A DNA stretch of 21,010 nucleotides from a virus. The notes below the pieces were generated by a model, which saw only the letters and a program-made list of their open reading frames with translations, made no database searches and was not told the origin of the DNA. Position 1 is the stretch's first letter; the number at the start of each line of letters is the position of its first letter. The DNA lies in the UHGV virus genome UHGV-1822439. One strand, written 5' to 3'. A program made the position numbers and the translations under genes. Below are positions 8,498 through 15,509 of this stretch, piece by piece.

Positions 8498-9171
8498 TTA
8501 TCAGATCTCCATATTGAATGCGTTTGTCGAACATAAGCAGGCCGCATTTGCTCGCGGCGGCTTAATAGTCCGGCATGGTCATGATGCAAAACCGTGTTAT
8601 CACCCAGGTAAATCATTGCGTGGCATGGATCCGCACCTTTAAACGGCTGTCTGATGATTACGTCACCTGGCTGGATGCTTTGCGCATCAACCTGATAAAA
8701 CCCGTTTTGCGGCAAGTTTTTTAAATACAGGTTTTCACCGCGCAGCCACCAGCCATCAAGGCGCTCGAAGTCCGGCAGGTCTACACCACAAAGGTGATAG
8801 GCGTCACGGAAAAGCGCGTAGCAGTCAGTTACCCCGTGCACAAACTTACGGCCTAGCAGGTGCGCCACCGGGCGAAATTTTCTTATCTTGCCGCCGGAAT
8901 ATAAAAACCACGGCAGACCGGAAATAACCTGCTGTTGTCGATCCCGCGCAGACAATACCGAAATATCATCAACGTGGGAGTGGAAAACGGCGGTTATAAC
9001 GCCCAATTCGTCCGCTTTGATGTAATCGTCCGGCGAAATCTTGAAGCTGTTGTAAGGTGTTTCAGACACGTTAGCGCACGGGTAAAAATACTCGTTATCT
9101 ATTACAAGTCCGCAAACTTCCTCAAACGGATGCGCGGCGGCATAACGCGACATTTTGTCTTCCATCCCCAT
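8440..9171 (-). CDS. K: Tail assembly protein K (NlpC/P60 peptidase plus MPN/JAB-like region)
   Basis: Motifs matching lambda K as recalled: FHSHVDD (lambda VHSHPGG) and HGVTDCYALFRDAYHL (NlpC/P60 Cys). Start set to ATG at 9171, 3 nt after the L stop; the ORF-track extension to 9246 overlaps L. Confidence 0.85.
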   Translation of the reverse strand: MGMEDKMSRYAAAHPFEEVCGLVIDNEYFYPCANVSETPYNSFKISPDDYIKADELGVITAVFHSHVDDISVLSARDRQQQVISGLPWFLYSGGKIRKFRPVAHLLGRKFVHGVTDCYALFRDAYHLCGVDLPDFERLDGWWLRGENLYLKNLPQNGFYQVDAQSIQPGDVIIRQPFKGADPCHAMIYLGDNTVLHHDHAGLLSRREQMRPAYVRQTHSIWRSDKCSNLDLRAIFEDITAKCV

Positions 9172-9173
9172 GA

Positions 9174-9878
9174 TTAACCTACCTTGCTGGAACCAGGAAA
9201 ACAGGAGATCGGCAGTGCTGCCGGACGCGGAAAACGCAAACGGCAACCGCTAAGGCGGTGGCTGCATTTGTCTAACGTTGGGTCACTTGTTGGTGTATCT
9301 TTATCAGTTGCGACCGGGCCGCCAGAATACATGCACCCGTCGCCTCTGTATTGCCACTGACAAACGTCAGCAAGGATGGTGCGCCCTGGGATAACGGCTT
9401 TATCTGCATCAATTGGCGTTGACAATTCATATTGCACCTGATCCGCTGTTTCTTCGCTCATTGCTTCAACGACGTAAAAAGATACAGCCTCAATAGATGG
9501 ATCTGCGTCTGGATTGCCGTTAGGGAAGTTAACGGCGTCCAGGTATTTAACCTCCACCTGGCGGCGCGTAACCTTCATTCCTCGCAGGTCGTTGAAATCG
9601 TTATTCATCCCTGTGATTAGCCCGCCGATATTGGCTACAACCATTTGAGGCCGCGAATAAACGCCCTCGTTTTTCATTTCGAAGCCCGTCGTCTCGATCG
9701 GGTAGCTGTTGTAAGCTACTCCCTTCCAGATAACCTGGCCGTAATAGCCGTTCGCGCCGGAATGGAAGCGGATAACCTCGCCTCCCAGGGGAGTAAGGTC
9801 CAGTTCAAATAAGTCAATGACCGCGCCAACTCCGGCATCGACGGAATCAATAATCATCTCTCTCGGAATATTGCGCAT
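9174..9878 (-). CDS. L: Minor tail protein L (234 aa)
   Basis: Similarity to lambda L (RRQVEVKYLDAVNF vs RRKVYARFLDAVNF; C-terminal Cys cluster C..GCMY..KCSHRLSGC). SD AAGGTGAG 5 nt before ATG at 9878. Confidence 0.85.
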   Translation of the reverse strand: MRNIPREMIIDSVDAGVGAVIDLFELDLTPLGGEVIRFHSGANGYYGQVIWKGVAYNSYPIETTGFEMKNEGVYSRPQMVVANIGGLITGMNNDFNDLRGMKVTRRQVEVKYLDAVNFPNGNPDADPSIEAVSFYVVEAMSEETADQVQYELSTPIDADKAVIPGRTILADVCQWQYRGDGCMYSGGPVATDKDTPTSDPTLDKCSHRLSGCRLRFPRPAALPISCFPGSSKVG

Positions 9879-9891
9879 TTTCTCACCTTGT

Positions 9892-9930
9892 CATTTTGTG
9901 ATATGCGTCACGCTAAATCACACCAAAATG
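9892..9930. promoter_or_regulatory. Junction inverted-repeat element, site C
   Basis: CATTTTGTGAT (9892-9902) and ATCACAccAAAATG (9917-9930) form an imperfect inverted repeat, 14 nt upstream of the L start on the minus strand and just before the plus-strand cassette. Confidence 0.5.
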
Positions 9931-9932
9931 GA

Positions 9933-9961
9933 TTGTTCATGGTTTTTACAATATGTATATT
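9933..9961 (+). promoter_or_regulatory. Candidate sigma70 promoter for the L/M-junction cassette
   Basis: TTGTTC (9933-9938), 17-nt spacer, TATATT (9956-9961). Weak -35; by eye only. Confidence 0.3.
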
Positions 9962-10007
9962 TTACTCAAACGAAGGGGAAGTTAACAAAATGGCGCGGAG
10001 GTGCGTT

Positions 10008-10196
10008 ATGACTGAAAAGCCATGGAAGTTGACGGTATTCATGACAGACGGTAGGGAAAAGGTTATCGCCCTGTATGACGACGAGGGGGAAGCATTGGTT
10101 GACGCGCTTTTACTTGCTGAGGATGACCGCCTTTTGGGATACCAGATCGAACCTGTCAAATATGAGGCTAACAAAAATGAAAAAATACAGTCTTGA
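10008..10196 (+). CDS. Small acidic protein (62 aa), first gene of the L/M-junction cassette
   Basis: SD GGAGG (9997-10001) 6 nt before ATG 10008. MTEKPWKLTVFMTDGREKVIALYDDEGEALVDALLLAEDD...PVKYEAN; paralogous to the N-terminus of the next gene. An alternative start at ATG 9990 is possible. Confidence 0.55.
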   Translation: MTEKPWKLTVFMTDGREKVIALYDDEGEALVDALLLAEDDRLLGYQIEPVKYEANKNEKIQS

Positions 10197-10524
10197 TGTG
10201 TGGTTAAGTGGTAGCAAGGAGTGTTTCGGATTATTTGATAGCGAAGAAGTAGCCCTGGAAGAAGGCAGGATTCTTGAATGTAGTTTAGGCCATCCAGTGA
10301 AATATGCTGCTAATCCGGTACAGATAGTTGATGAGGTGGAAGATATGAACCCGAAAGATATTAATGTTAACTTCAATGTTAATTTTGCAGACTCTATGGA
10401 TCAGTCTTGCCCTGGTGAAATACACGCAAAAGGTTTCCCGGCTGACGATCCAGAAGCAAAACGCGAATACGAAAAAGCTGCGAAAGACTTCTGCATGGAT
10501 AATCTTGCAGCATTCGATAAATAA
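10177..10524 (+). CDS. Acidic protein (115 aa), tandem paralog of the preceding gene with a C-terminal extension
   Basis: ATG 10177 overlaps the preceding gene by 20 nt. N-terminus SLDVWLSGSKECFGLFDSEEVAL...GHPVKYAAN aligns with ...LTVFMTDGREKVIALYDDEGEAL...GYQIEPVKYEAN; strongly acidic. A GTG at 10198 is an alternative start. Confidence 0.55.
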   Translation: MKKYSLDVWLSGSKECFGLFDSEEVALEEGRILECSLGHPVKYAANPVQIVDEVEDMNPKDINVNFNVNFADSMDQSCPGEIHAKGFPADDPEAKREYEKAAKDFCMDNLAAFDK

Positions 10525-10533
10525 GGGGGATAC

Positions 10534-10782
10534 ATGGGGCGGCGCAATCACGGCGATTATGTGTACACGCTGAAACAGGCCGCCCGCCTCGTTGGTTATC
10601 ATGAACACGAATTTATTGATTTGCTGATTGAGCGCGGGATACTGTACCAGGTCTGTTTAACGCTGTACCCGAAAGCTAAATACCTACAGGAAAAGTTATT
10701 TATCATCATGACGGATGAAAACCAGGTTAACCATTCATTCGTCACTGATAAGGGCGTTAATTATCTGCGTGATAACTTATAG
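10534..10782 (+). CDS. Small protein (82 aa), possible helix-turn-helix DNA-binding protein
   Basis: SD AAGGGGGA (10524-10530) before ATG 10534, 9 nt after the preceding stop. Segment TLKQAARLVGYHEHEFIDLLIERGIL has a helix-turn-helix-like pattern (by inspection only). Confidence 0.5.
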   Translation: MGRRNHGDYVYTLKQAARLVGYHEHEFIDLLIERGILYQVCLTLYPKAKYLQEKLFIIMTDENQVNHSFVTDKGVNYLRDNL

Positions 10783-10792
10783 GTGACAGATT

Positions 10793-10909
10793 ATGAAAAT
10801 AGAAGTTTTGGCGCTAATAATAATGGGATTGATAGTATTTGGCGTTCATGCTGTAGATCTGGACTGGAAAACGATAGCGGAAAATATAGCATTAATGGAA
10901 ATGGAATAA
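10793..10909 (+). CDS. 38-aa hydrophobic peptide (single TM or signal-peptide-like N-terminus)
   Basis: SD AGGTGA (10781-10786) before ATG 10793. MKIEVLALIIMGLIVFGVHAVDLDWKTIAENIALMEME, stop TAA followed by two more in-frame stops and a terminator. Below the ORF-track length cutoff. Confidence 0.45.
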   Translation: MKIEVLALIIMGLIVFGVHAVDLDWKTIAENIALMEME

Positions 10910-10914
10910 TAATA

Positions 10915-10940
10915 ACCCCGCTTCGCGCGGGGTCGTGTTT
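10915..10940. terminator. Intrinsic terminator closing the L/M-junction cassette (possibly bidirectional)
   Basis: Stem ACCCCGC (10915-10921) / GCGGGGT (10927-10933), loop TTCGC, then CGTGTTTAT; on the minus strand the hairpin is followed by TATTATTATT. Confidence 0.6.
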
Positions 10941-10987
10941 ATACGCCATCAACCAAAAATAAAACCCCCTTCCCTTCCCGGGATCTA

Positions 10988-11125
10988 CACCCCCACGTAC
11001 CCATCGCCAACGTCGTGAAGATACCATATATCGCCGTTGTCAGCTTTTACAGTAAGGTCGTTGATCTCATAGTCGTCAAACAATGTAAAAGCGTAAGTTT
11101 TGTCAACCACACAAGTCCCGTACAT
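10988..11125 (-). CDS. Possible small ORF (46 aa) just downstream of M
   Basis: ATG at 11125, 12 nt after the M stop, preceded by GGGGGG with about 6-nt spacing; MYGTCVVDKTYAFTLFDDYEINDLTVKADNGDIWYLHDVGDGYVGV. No family recognised. Confidence 0.3.
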
Positions 11126-11137
11126 AACAACCCCCCA

Positions 11138-11491
11138 TTAGCCAACAACTTGTTCAAACGTTGCGTTTAGCGTGTACACAGGCCCGTCTTTGGTCATGCT
11201 CCAGCTACGGCAAACGAAAAGCCTTTGCACCCCGTCGATCGATGGAGTCCAGTAAAACGCCTCGACAGCGCCGCGCGCCCTCAAAAATGCTTCGGCCTGG
11301 ATCGCCACGTTTCCACCATCACCACATCCCGCGCTACTGCCTTTGAAAACCAGGGTATAACTATCAAGCAACGTGTTAATCCCTTTCGCCTGGCGCTGTT
11401 CATAACCATCACCAAGTTTAACGACAGACACATTTGGTTCCCTGGTCACGCTGTAGCTTCTTTGCGGCGTCCATCTGAAAACTTCTGGCAT
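11138..11491 (-). CDS. M: Minor tail protein M (117 aa)
   Basis: Similarity to lambda M as recalled (FRW near N-terminus, GDGYEQR vs GDGYSQR, C-terminal FEQVVG vs FEQVVN). SD AGGGGGA before ATG 11491. Confidence 0.85.
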   Translation of the reverse strand: MPEVFRWTPQRSYSVTREPNVSVVKLGDGYEQRQAKGINTLLDSYTLVFKGSSAGCGDGGNVAIQAEAFLRARGAVEAFYWTPSIDGVQRLFVCRSWSMTKDGPVYTLNATFEQVVG

Positions 11492-11557
11492 GATTCCCCC
11501 TATAAGTTACATATTGCATACATCTTTACGCGCTTCTACGCGAAAAATGAGAAATTC

Positions 11558-11589
11558 ATCACAAGAATTATAACCAGTTTACAAAATGG
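11558..11589. promoter_or_regulatory. Junction repeat element, site D
   Basis: ATCACAAgAA (11558-11567) and TTTACAAAATGG (11578-11589): same half-site family as sites A-C, immediately upstream of the candidate promoter. Confidence 0.4.
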
Positions 11590-11590
11590 C

Positions 11591-11619
11591 TTCACATAAG
11601 GCGTGACAAGATGTATATA
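11591..11619 (+). promoter_or_regulatory. Candidate sigma70 promoter for the M/tape-measure-junction cassette
   Basis: TTCACA (11591-11596), 17-nt spacer, TATATA (11614-11619); about 40 nt upstream of the first SD. Confidence 0.45.
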
Positions 11620-11660
11620 GTAAGCAAGAAGAAAAAGCAGTACCGACAAAGGAGGCCAAT

Positions 11661-11816
11661 ATGAAGCGTTATGTAGTGGTAATGCTGAACAACGCATTCG
11701 AACAGGTGGAAGTGGCGATAGTCAAAGGCTTTGATGACGCATTCAAATACGGTCAATTCATGATGAATGCGAAGGAAAACGAGTACCGTGATTTCTTCCT
11801 GAAAGTGGTCAACTAA
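11661..11816 (+). CDS. Small protein (51 aa), first gene of the M/tape-measure-junction cassette
   Basis: Strong SD AAAGGAGG (11648-11655), 5 nt before ATG 11661; MKRYVVVMLNNAFEQVEVAIVKGFDDAFKYGQFMMNAKENEYRDFFLKVVN. Below the ORF-track cutoff. Could be the partner (antitoxin-like) of the next gene. Confidence 0.5.
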   Translation: MKRYVVVMLNNAFEQVEVAIVKGFDDAFKYGQFMMNAKENEYRDFFLKVVN

Positions 11817-11834
11817 TGGATTGTGGGGTGTGTT

Positions 11835-12089
11835 ATGAAATTGGTGGCGATTGGTAAAAACCTGAAAGCACAGAAAAACGCACAGGACCGGATCATCAAG
11901 AAAGGAAAGCAATTGCTTGATGCTTTTCTTAAAAAAGAGGCCAACCCCAAAAAATTACGCGATGGCTACGGTTATAAATTTGACATCAACCCCGATTGGC
12001 GGTTATTCAGCGAAGATTTAAAGATGTGGTTAATTATTGACCACCTGGAATATAACAGGCACTGTGGGGTGAAAGGCGCTCACAAGTGA
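11835..12089 (+). CDS. Small basic protein (84 aa), candidate RelE/ParE-superfamily-like toxin
   Basis: ATG 11835, 18 nt after the upstream stop. MKLVAIGKNLKAQKNAQDRIIKKGKQLLDAFLKKEANPKKLRDGYGYKFDINPDWRLFSEDLKMWLIIDHLEYNRH. Pattern (basic N-terminal helix, NP..KL..G, D.R, C-terminal H/Y) loosely resembles RelE/YafQ/YoeB toxins; weak, from memory. Confidence 0.3.
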   Translation: MKLVAIGKNLKAQKNAQDRIIKKGKQLLDAFLKKEANPKKLRDGYGYKFDINPDWRLFSEDLKMWLIIDHLEYNRHCGVKGAHK

Positions 12090-12120
12090 CACGGATTTGA
12101 ATGTTGCGGAGGAAAACAAA

Positions 12121-12291
12121 ATGAAAAATCCGGCAAATAAAAGCAACGTAAAACGCATGGCATGGGTGCTAAAATATATGGATAGTAAAGGGGATACATA
12201 TACATGCCCATTTTTTAGGTGTACTGACGCGGTATTTGCCAGAAGTGTACACGGAGGGAAAATTGAGAGAGGATATACAAGATTTGAGTAA
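12121..12291 (+). CDS. Small basic protein (56 aa), hypothetical
   Basis: SD GGAGG (12108-12112) 8 nt before ATG 12121; MKNPANKSNVKRMAWVLKYMDSKGDTYTCPFFRCTDAVFARSVHGGKIERGYTRFE. Confidence 0.45.
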   Translation: MKNPANKSNVKRMAWVLKYMDSKGDTYTCPFFRCTDAVFARSVHGGKIERGYTRFE

Positions 12292-12329
12292 ATTTATTCA
12301 CGAAATCAATAACATGATGAAGGTTTATA

Positions 12330-12509
12330 ATGATTATTCATGATACTGAAGAATGCAGAAGGATTGATCTTAGTATTGAAGATGACGGAAGATTATGGAT
12401 CGTTAGCGACTGCGAGATGATTGTAATAGACAAAAAGCAAGCTGACGAACTGATAAGAGCATTGCAGCTTTATGCAAACGGCGAATTTAAAAATGATGAA
12501 ATTGAATAA
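12330..12509 (+). CDS. Small acidic protein (59 aa), hypothetical
   Basis: SD GAAGG 8 nt before ATG 12330; MIIHDTEECRRIDLSIEDDGRLWIVSDCEMIVIDKKQADELIRALQLYANGEFKNDEIE; stop 12507-12509, immediately followed by a terminator. Confidence 0.45.
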   Translation: MIIHDTEECRRIDLSIEDDGRLWIVSDCEMIVIDKKQADELIRALQLYANGEFKNDEIE

Positions 12510-12513
12510 AATA

Positions 12514-12540
12514 GCCCCGGCATTGTGCCGGGGTTTTGTT
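12514..12540. terminator. Intrinsic terminator, bidirectional (closes the cassette; also follows the tape measure gene on the minus strand)
   Basis: Stem CCCCGGCA (12515-12522) / TGCCGGGG (12526-12533), loop TTG, then TTTTGTTTATTT on plus; on minus the hairpin is followed by CTATTTTATTC. Confidence 0.75.
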
Positions 12541-14753
12541 TATTTCCTGCGAGGTTGCAGCATTCCGCCTGGTCTGGATGATTCGCGGTGCATCAGGCCC
12601 ATGCAGATCCTTTCCATGTCCTGTTGCAGCTTTTTGGCATCCTCATCGCTCCATCCATTTTGTGGGTAAACACTAATCGGCGCGTTTATGCTAACGCTAC
12701 CACCACCAGCACCACCAATGTCGCGATTTGGTATTACCCTGCCGTTGTCACCCGGGATCATGTACTGACTCCCATTGCTCGCCTGAAAGATCTCCGGTTT
12801 ACCGTGTTCGCCGACCTTATAGAGGCTGCCCGCAGCCACCGCACCGCCGTTATAACGAGCGCCAGCCAGGCCAAGCGCTTTTGCTCCAGCCACACCAGTG
12901 GCAAGACTCGTACCCCCCACGGTCGCCGCGCCGCCCATCGTGGCTACGTTTGCCAGGTATGCAGGAGTAGCCCACGCAGATCCCAAAGCGGTAGCCTCTG
13001 CCAATGCTTTAGCTGTTGCGGCTGCGCTGGCGGCCTCGCCTATCAATTGCTGCTTGACCCATTCAGCCCCCATTTGAACAAGCGTACCGATAACGGAGGA
13101 AAGGATTGTATTGCCAATGTTAGCCAGCGCCTGCTGCCAGCTTTGAGTGCCGTTAACCAGGCCCACAAGCGCATTTGTTGCAGATCCGCCCATTGCATCA
13201 ACGGTATCGCCCAACAGTTTGTAGCTCATTGACTGTGCTTTATATCGCTCCCACTCAAGGGTGAGCATTTCCTGTGCGTGCGCTCTTTCTTGTTCCCTCA
13301 TATATTGCTCAGTAGCGCCAAGATCTTCCAGCATTTGCTTACGAACGGTCCATTCATTTTGCGCCTGCTGTATTGGGTCTAGTTCACCGCGCTTCTGATC
13401 CAGTGATGGAATCATTTTGTCCCATTTTTCTTGCAGCCTATTGATCGGGTCGTTAATTTCCGCCAGAGTTTCGCGCAATTCATCACCAATTCCCTTCATT
13501 GCGCCTTTGTATTCAAGCATGGTTATTTTCCCGGCTTTAAAGGCTGCATCTATGGCTTTTTGTGATTCAAGCGCTTTGCGCATTGCTGCCGAATCTTCGT
13601 TATATGCATCTGAAATGCGCACACCCTGTTCCGCAAGGCGCTCGGCTTCTGATTTGCCGGTTTTTTTACCTTTGCCTTTCTTACCCTTACCACCAGGTTG
13701 AGGCTTAAACGTTATGCGACTTACACCAGCTTGCCCCGTGGGGAGAGTGGAAACAAATGGCTGTTCTCCGCCATCAAACCATCCAACCTGTTTCGCTTGA
13801 GCGCGGAACAAACTAAGCCCAGGCACTATACCCTCAAACGCCCCAGCCAATAGCCACAATTTATCAGTTAATGACGTGCTATCGCTCGCCAGGGACTTAA
13901 ACCAACCAGATAACATCTGGACTTCACTAGAAACAGCCTGTATACCAGTAACTACCAAATCAGACACTCCAAGCGTTTGGTTTAGCGTGTCAATTAACAG
14001 ATCGAAGTTGTTTTTTAGCTCGTTAAATGCCTGATCTGTTGTTGTTGGCAGTTTTGCGAAGTCCTTCTCTATGTCTTCTGCGCCAGCAAGAATTGAATTG
14101 GTAACATCCTCGGCGGTGAGCTTACCATCAAGCATTCTTGCGCGAAGTTCACCCATCGAGATCCCCATTTGTTTGGCGACGCGTCGCCATACTTCGGGCA
14201 TGTTTTCAAGCACAGAGTTGTATTCTTCCGCGCGAACAATGCCACCCGTCAGGGACTGCCCTAACTGGCGAAGTGCGTTTGACATTTCATCTGATGAGCT
14301 ACCTCCGATACGGCCTATTTTCTGAAGCGAGTCGGTAAGCTGCAATACCTGCTGACTGGTCGCGCTGGTATCCTGTAGGCTGGCTTTTAGGCTTTCCCAC
14401 AGCTTCCCGGTGCTTTGAACACTCATCCCTGTGCGATTCGATATCTGAACAATCCCGTCAAAATTCGATTTTGCGTCAGCAATGCCGCTTGATAGTCGTG
14501 TTACCCTGGCGCGTAGCAGATTTACGTTATCTGCGATCTCCAGGAATTTTTTTGCAGCCATGACCATCATTCCAATGTTCACGGCTTTGGATAAATTACT
14601 TATCGTGGTATTAAGTGACTGCACTGATTTATCGGTGCGTTTAGCGCCTTGCTCGATTTTATCAAACGAGTCCTCCGCCTTGCGTTGAGCTACTAGTAAC
14701 CGCTCGGTTTTTGCGTCAACGGTATACTCAATCGTGCCCACATTTGTTGTCAT
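12540..14753 (-). CDS. Tail length tape measure protein (737 aa)
   Basis: Large ORF between the chaperone and M; alpha-helical, Ala/Gln/Leu-rich with Gly-rich and Lys-rich segments (KGKKGKGKK); SD GGAG before ATG 14753. Confidence 0.85.
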   Translation of the reverse strand: MTTNVGTIEYTVDAKTERLLVAQRKAEDSFDKIEQGAKRTDKSVQSLNTTISNLSKAVNIGMMVMAAKKFLEIADNVNLLRARVTRLSSGIADAKSNFDGIVQISNRTGMSVQSTGKLWESLKASLQDTSATSQQVLQLTDSLQKIGRIGGSSSDEMSNALRQLGQSLTGGIVRAEEYNSVLENMPEVWRRVAKQMGISMGELRARMLDGKLTAEDVTNSILAGAEDIEKDFAKLPTTTDQAFNELKNNFDLLIDTLNQTLGVSDLVVTGIQAVSSEVQMLSGWFKSLASDSTSLTDKLWLLAGAFEGIVPGLSLFRAQAKQVGWFDGGEQPFVSTLPTGQAGVSRITFKPQPGGKGKKGKGKKTGKSEAERLAEQGVRISDAYNEDSAAMRKALESQKAIDAAFKAGKITMLEYKGAMKGIGDELRETLAEINDPINRLQEKWDKMIPSLDQKRGELDPIQQAQNEWTVRKQMLEDLGATEQYMREQERAHAQEMLTLEWERYKAQSMSYKLLGDTVDAMGGSATNALVGLVNGTQSWQQALANIGNTILSSVIGTLVQMGAEWVKQQLIGEAASAAATAKALAEATALGSAWATPAYLANVATMGGAATVGGTSLATGVAGAKALGLAGARYNGGAVAAGSLYKVGEHGKPEIFQASNGSQYMIPGDNGRVIPNRDIGGAGGGSVSINAPISVYPQNGWSDEDAKKLQQDMERICMGLMHRESSRPGGMLQPRRK

Positions 14754-15011: not shown

Positions 15012-15509
15012 ATGAAACGGCTAGTAAAAGTCGCGGTAGCTGCGGTCATGGCAATATTCGCGGTCAATGCAAATGCAAGTAATGAAGTCAGCAAGATGTG
15101 CGACGCTATTTATCCAGCCTACGAAAAAGCATATACAATGGCAAATGTAAACTTTTTTTCAATTGGTAGGCACGGCGTTAACTGGGAGTATTTCATCTTA
15201 AATAAAGATAGCAGGACCAAAAAAGGTGACGCTGAAATGATAAAAGCGCACGGTGAAAGTTTCGCTTTCGTGATGGCTGCTGCTGAAAACAAACAAAATG
15301 ATAATGAATTTAAAAACTTTGTCGCTGGACTTGCCATCATGGCTGCTGAACGGGCGATAAAAGATCACGACAATAACGCTTATGCCGCTGCCGACGGGAT
15401 GGCATTAGATAGGGTAAGAATTGACTTCAAAAACATGTGCGTCAAAGAAGGCGCTAACATGTATAAAAAAGTAATAGATAAACACCACGAATATTATATA
15501 GGTTATTAA
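15012..15509 (+). CDS. Secreted/periplasmic protein of unknown function (165 aa), moron
   Basis: SD GAGG 6 nt before ATG 15012; signal peptide MKRLVKVAVAAVMAIFAVNANA with Ala-x-Ala cleavage site; two Cys in the mature part; Ala/Lys/Asn-rich, likely helical. Confidence 0.6.
   Translation: MKRLVKVAVAAVMAIFAVNANASNEVSKMCDAIYPAYEKAYTMANVNFFSIGRHGVNWEYFILNKDSRTKKGDAEMIKAHGESFAFVMAAAENKQNDNEFKNFVAGLAIMAAERAIKDHDNNAYAAADGMALDRVRIDFKNMCVKEGANMYKKVIDKHHEYYIGY

Follow-up and report, generated by a model that had tools for sequence, protein, structure and literature searches.

A predicted ParE-like toxin-fold protein and its upstream neighbour in a tail-region cassette of mEp021-like prophages

The virus genome UHGV-1822439, analysed here as one stretch of 21,010 nucleotides (the window), carries between two of its tail genes the adjacent small genes A51 (11661-11816, + strand) and B84 (11835-12089, + strand), which encode proteins of 51 and 84 amino acids and which a first-pass annotation had put forward as a possible antitoxin and toxin, respectively, with B84 loosely resembling the RelE/YafQ/YoeB mRNA interferases. 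Our analysis places B84 in the uncharacterised family PF24732, of which it is a new member although the family itself is already present in Pfam and in RefSeq protein names, and makes a RelE/ParE fold highly probable. However, comparative genomics does not support calling A51 and B84 a toxin-antitoxin pair. Instead, we favour the reading, with a probability of roughly one half, that B84, a protein with a toxin fold, acts on its own as an accessory effector of the phage and is carried in a moron-like cassette.

Conservation and linkage of A51 and B84

Both open reading frames (ORFs) were found where they had been placed, A51 running from an ATG at 11661 to a stop codon at 11814-11816 and B84 from an ATG at 11835 to a stop codon at 12087-12089, with 18 nt between them. 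The features ascribed to the B84 protein were likewise recovered, namely NPKKLRDGYGYKF at residues 37-49, DWRLF at 54-58, HLEYNRH at 70-76 and a basic character (isoelectric point, pI, 9.8). A51 matched phrog_29810 (E 1.8e-36) and B84 matched phrog_1525 (E 3e-19), and both genes are kept in approximately 57 related phage and prophage loci. Pairwise ratios of nonsynonymous to synonymous substitutions (dN/dS, Nei-Gojobori), obtained from 29 distinct DNA versions of A51 and 40 of B84 over hundreds of pairs, were 0.04 and 0.07, respectively, indicating strong purifying selection on both. As the surrounding stretch is AT-rich and rich in short ORFs, one of which (C56, see below) was not called by RefSeq, A51 and B84 might be regarded as chance or decaying frames without function. 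Yet these dN/dS values, together with the PHROG and Pfam matches, the good ribosome-binding sites (RBS) of both ORFs and the confident predicted fold of B84, leave this explanation with a negligible probability, and the conservation statistics effectively refute it. Judged by their conservation, A51 and B84 are genuine genes.

A51 and B84 occur together in 53 of the 57 mEp021-like loci, and in E. coli O157:H7 LSU61 the two alone make up a minimal cassette. In four of the 57 loci, however, A51 is precisely deleted and B84 is full-length; these are an E. coli chromosome (L007), E. coli UMNK88 (L015) and two viral contigs of 53-57 kb (L027 and L033). All four share one deletion junction, in which the ATGAAAC of A51 is fused to the ATGAAACTGG of B84, and the deletion places B84 directly behind the stronger RBS of A51. 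The A51-less loci have since diverged, with 28-52 mismatches in 425 nt (7-12%), and encode three distinct full-length B84 proteins. The persistence of an intact B84 after the loss of A51 is contrary to what an obligate toxin-antitoxin pair predicts and, on the evidence of these genomes, A51 is demonstrably dispensable to loci bearing B84. Conversely, B84 is frameshifted beside an intact A51 in L017 and L041, and hence the loss of either gene is possible.

The two proteins also differ in how they evolve. A51 is 86-100% identical across loci and B84 61-100%, the latter in classes at ~96, ~80 and ~61%, and at the protein level the divergence of the two was weakly correlated (r = 0.38). A51 evolves more slowly than B84 and its variation does not follow the B84 allele classes, thus giving no signature of co-evolution; these rates are the opposite of those of the usual antitoxin, which is fast-evolving and co-varies with its toxin. 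In addition, no A51 homologue was found next to other PF24732 genes outside the mEp021-like group. From the proposed toxin-antitoxin pairing, the gene order, the spacing and the toxin fold of B84 are retained, while A51 is probably not an obligatory antitoxin.

The A51 protein is near neutral and not acidic (pI 6.1). The remark that it does not look like a classical ribbon-helix-helix or Phd antitoxin was borne out, as neither A51 nor its 13-member alignment gave a match to an antitoxin or DNA-binding family, or to any other entry, in Pfam, NCBIfam, PADLOC or the PDB; a PADLOC match to PDC-M02A (E 0.0099, 13.9 bits) was regarded as noise. With the exception of one variant, which is 55% identical and differs at its C-terminus, all A51 homologues were at least 76% identical, and those with a name were E. 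coli or mEp phage proteins. A tblastn search of the phage collection found A51 solely in mEp021-like phages. We also considered, from a beta-beta-alpha-beta pattern read by eye, that A51 might be a paralogue of genes in a second accessory cassette between tail genes L and M, and this was ruled out by BLASTP. A51 thus appears to be a separate, strongly conserved accessory protein specific to the mEp021-like lineage, which would at most modulate B84.

Family, predicted fold and candidate targets of B84

The PF24732 'ParE-like toxin domain' model matched B84 over profile positions 2-67 of 67 at 45.9 bits (E 5.9e-12), above the curated gathering cut-off of 24.4 bits, and it was matched by all 25 aligned B84 relatives. 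Homologues in E. coli prophages are already named 'ParE family toxin-like protein' in RefSeq. In contrast, B84 matched neither PF05016 nor the YafQ, YoeB and HigB models, nor any NCBIfam model, and searches of the PDB with the single B84 sequence and with its profile returned nothing meaningful. An exhaustive HMMER search gave just 9 representatives at E<=1e-3, the protein being short and the library huge.

An AlphaFold2 model of B84 built from 25 sequences, down to 23% identity, was confident (predicted local distance difference test, pLDDT, 89.9; predicted template-modelling score, pTM, 0.79) and has the order beta-beta-alpha-beta-beta-beta-beta-alpha, whereas a model built from 14 close homologues alone was unusable (pLDDT 52.9). 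The predicted structure shows the elements by which the RelE/ParE fold is recognised, one or more N-terminal helices on a 3-4-stranded antiparallel sheet and a C-terminal helix, although the fold is trimmed: of the two N-terminal helices B84 has one, the first being replaced by a short beta-hairpin. We therefore hold it very probable that B84 belongs to the RelE/ParE superfamily. Hence, the profile search and the structure prediction that the first-pass annotation had proposed as checks uphold its suggestion at the level of PF24732 and of the superfamily fold, but the closer likeness to RelE, YafQ and YoeB finds no match in the profiles of YafQ, YoeB, HigB or RelE-type toxins. Residues 78-84 of B84 (12066-12086) form a C-terminal tail, GV(K/R)G(A/C)HK, which is predicted to be disordered (pLDDT ~51), is kept in two relatives of 48-52% identity (P0042 and P0051) and is gone in more distant family members; this tail could be an interaction motif.

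A tblastn search placed the B84 family in 70 or more phage records, the majority from virulent phages with genomes of 320-380 kb, among them 121Q, PBECO4, RaK2, K64-1, CBB, GAP32 and fHe-Yen9-04. In several of these jumbo phages the PF24732 gene lies inside the annotated direct terminal repeats, other members stand in arrays of small ORFs near genes resembling T7 gp0.4 or gp1.1, and further members were found on a ParA/ParB-bearing contig and in phages Kc237 and SaltyDalty. Across these settings the neighbours of the PF24732 genes were not homologous and carried no antitoxin domain. In jumbo phages (L009 3607-3957, L065 1066-1422 and L066 1095-1451) we observed a conserved gene of 116-118 codons immediately 5' of the PF24732 gene, the product of which has the N-terminal motif F(Y/F)ATRxLAR...FKDxGKxxPxGxRW and no Pfam match; this synteny was seen in the jumbo group alone. 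A literature search found no paper mentioning PF24732 and no experimentally characterised member of the family.

Among the 25 aligned sequences K40, L41, R56 and N74 are invariant and V4, K23, G44 and H70 nearly so, and Y73 is replaced by F in three sequences. By eye, the conserved residues of B84 align with NKLR, R61, R81 and Y87 of RelE and with R65, H83 and Y84 of YoeB, the sequences of both having been checked against the PDB. Comparison of the family profile with small RelE and YoeB alignments by hhalign gave no significance, and the global alignment to YoeB, at a probability below 1%, paired R56 with R65, H70 with H83 and Y73 with Y84. The H-x-x-Y-N motif of B84 is also like the non-catalytic C-terminal 'LHxxMD' motif of ParE, and the matches to ParE ranked lower than those to RNase-type toxins. 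By analogy with these toxins, B84 would bind a core host machine and slow gene expression of the host or of a competitor, the candidate targets being the ribosomal A site, where mRNA would be cleaved as by RelE, YoeB or HigB, and DNA gyrase, as for ParE. Translating ribosomes or gyrase are thus the most likely sites of action. We infer this target, and likewise any toxicity of B84 and the timing of its expression.

Cassette architecture and tail-gene setting

The window is an mEp021-like (mEpimmI) prophage of E. coli M15, with 100% identity to a prophage in the M15 chromosome (NZ_CP185789.1) and 82-96% identity to temperate mEp021/mEpimmI coliphages. The latter constitute a temperate, non-lambdoid phage group (PMC11893012), the genome paper of which does not discuss A51 or B84. 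As first described, the pair lies between the genes of the minor tail protein M (11138-11491, - strand; PF05939 Phage_min_tail at the same position in related loci; 'phage tail protein' in RefSeq) and the tape measure protein H (12540-14753, - strand; PF20155 TMP_3 in related loci; 'tape measure protein' in RefSeq), with tail gene L at 9174-9878 on the - strand.

The cassette consists of four small + strand ORFs, A51, B84, C56 (12121-12291) and D59 (12330-12509), antisense between M and H, and is closed by a bidirectional intrinsic terminator (12513-12535) that abuts the 3' end of the tape measure gene. On the + strand the stem of this terminator measures 10 bp, 7 of them GC, and leads into a T-run; on the - strand the stem is 8 bp long. 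Terminators are annotated at the equivalent position in mEp010 and mEp021. A51 and B84 share this terminator as well as a common upstream region, and Shine-Dalgarno sequences were found for both, AGGAGG (~11651-11656) 8 nt 5' of the A51 ATG and GGGGTG 5' of the B84 ATG. The divergent intergenic region from the start of M to A51 (11492-11660), which presumably holds the + strand promoter and leader for these genes, contains long stretches that are invariant across six diverged loci. A candidate sigma-70 promoter, TTCACA-N17-TATATA at ~11590-11618, was read by eye; a consensus promoter scan flagged no site in 11492-11660, no operator-like palindrome or inverted repeat was found 5' of A51, and an Rfam scan of 9800-12700 gave no RNA family. 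Given its orientation against the late operon and the bidirectional terminator at its end, the cassette is probably transcribed from a promoter of its own within the conserved region 11492-11660.

The downstream part of the cassette is variable. C56, a 56-amino-acid accessory ORF with weak PHROG matches and no RefSeq annotation in M15, occurs in roughly one half of the related loci, and D59, an acidic 59-amino-acid accessory ORF that matches phrog_13627 (E 7.8e-8) and is annotated as hypothetical in M15, in about 40%. Elsewhere they are replaced, by a 49-amino-acid ORF in L003 and by a zinc-ribbon protein in mEp021. This 49-amino-acid ORF overlaps the stop codon of B84 by 4 nt (ATGA) in L003, L004 and L007 6252-6401, which suggests translational coupling to B84 in those relatives; the overlapping ORF is missing from the window and from UMNK88. 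A homologue of C56 (51% identity) was also found in L012 (1669-1797), a phage contig of small tandem ORFs in which a B84 homologue (47% identity) stands at a distance of 2.2 kb. C56 and B84 are therefore both part of a pool of small genes common to temperate and probably virulent phages.

Two other insertions of this kind were seen in the window. Between L and M (10008-10782, + strand) stands another antisense accessory cassette, which ends in a bidirectional terminator at 10914-10934; its genes 10008-10196 and 10177-10524 are mutual paralogues (BLASTP E 5e-5), and its third gene, 10534-10782, is a KilAC/ANT-like antirepressor fragment. A third + strand insertion (15012-15509) stands between the tape measure gene and the upstream tail genes (DUF6246). 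The content of this third site differs in nearly every related locus (L003-L008, ~9000-10000), with a VasI-domain protein in L007 and ORFs of 100, 138 or 59+124 amino acids elsewhere. The tail operon of the mEp021-like group is thus interrupted by three antisense accessory hot spots. As the terminators at 12513-12535 and 10914-10934 look functional on both strands, late transcription of the - strand must read through them, which fits the antitermination reported for the mEp021/mEpimmI phages, a Nus-dependent group (PMC11893012). Among the relatives, L007 (1781-2347) and mEp515 (H3) have an HNH endonuclease gene (PF13392) inserted between tail genes, and in L005 (9600-12255; E. coli GCA_029359995.1) a region with a cI-like repressor of the helix-turn-helix/Peptidase_S24 type replaces the genes upstream of the tape measure gene, suggesting that L005 is a rearranged or chimeric prophage.

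Alternative explanations and likeness to known systems

If B84 is a stand-alone effector, it would lead, together with the unrelated orphan A51, a mosaic moron-like cassette of variable downstream content and would not depend on A51. Virulent jumbo and T7-like phages likewise carry PF24732 genes among their small genes without a recognisable antitoxin, and there toxicity to the host would cost the phage nothing. The alternative that A51 and B84 constitute a true type II toxin-antitoxin system, in which A51 would be a novel minimal antitoxin and the module would stabilise the prophage or abort infection by other phages, draws on the canonical order and spacing of a small gene 18 nt upstream of a gene with a RelE/ParE fold, on the strong purifying selection on both, on their co-occurrence in 53 of 57 loci and their two-gene cassette in LSU61, and on a prophage location typical of such modules. 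We nevertheless consider it rather unlikely, since a lineage in which A51 was cleanly deleted has kept B84 intact, behind the stronger RBS, while diverging by 7-12%. Furthermore, A51 has neither an acidic pI nor an antitoxin or DNA-binding signature, evolves more slowly than B84 without tracking its allele classes, and has no homologue beside other PF24732 members, and no operator-like palindrome stands upstream of it.

B84 could also be a catalytically inert toxin mimic with a role in counter-defence or competition, occupying the target of RelE/ParE-type abortive-infection toxins or titrating their partners. Many phages, the A51-less prophages among them, tolerate a B84-family gene that has no conserved partner, and in virulent phages PF24732 occurs among small, uncharacterised genes beside homologues of T7 early genes, near which counter-defence genes are often found; moreover, A51 is conserved whereas the B84 beside it diversifies into classes of 96, 80 and 61%, which suggests an arms race. 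However, K40, R56 and N74 are invariant, and H70 nearly so, at positions that by eye correspond to the active site or C-terminal motif of RelE, YoeB and ParE, and this strict conservation of polar residues argues for retained activity. We hold an inert mimic to be distinctly improbable. Beyond the stand-alone effector reading for B84 itself, we tentatively raise the possibility that PF24732 as a whole is a family of RelE/ParE-fold effectors, a bacterial toxin fold turned into a phage weapon, which phages use without an antitoxin to shut off the host or to compete with other phages. Its members would be early genes in virulent jumbo and T7-like phages and morons of the tail region in temperate mEp021-like ones, and A51 would be either a new 51-amino-acid modulator or the first of a new minimal antitoxin family. 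If B84 is active, a classic bacterial toxin fold would be widely phage-borne without a dedicated antidote, which would bear on how phages shut down their hosts or exclude rivals, and on how reliably a toxin-like gene with a small gene in front of it predicts a toxin-antitoxin system. In practice the case advises caution: the toxin-like annotation of B84 is right, whereas its pairing with A51 finds no support in the comparison of genomes.

The closest likeness of B84 is to other PF24732 proteins, such as those of Klebsiella phage RaK2 and Yersinia phage fHe-Yen9-04, the predicted structures of which superpose with that of B84 at TM scores of 0.74-0.80. Compared to these, the mEp021-type members add the C-terminal GV(K/R)G(A/C)HK tail, and they stand in the tail region of a temperate phage and not among the small genes of virulent phages. 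To the mRNA interferases RelE, YoeB, YafQ and HigB, B84 has no significant sequence or profile match; it is predicted to differ from the RelE type by the beta-hairpin in place of the first N-terminal helix, and no recognisable RelB, YefM, DinJ or HigA partner accompanies it. The prophage-borne PaaR2-PaaA2-ParE2 system of E. coli O157:H7 likewise differs, in that A51 is unlike PaaA2 or ParD and is dispensable, and that the cassette holds no PaaR2-like regulator. Siphophages carry morons in their tail regions, for example HK97 gp15 and lambda lom and bor. Like these, the cassette described here is an autonomous accessory unit with its own terminator, set between conserved tail genes and variable in content among close relatives, but unlike them it is antisense to the tail operon and is led by a predicted toxin-fold protein and an orphan protein of 51 amino acids.
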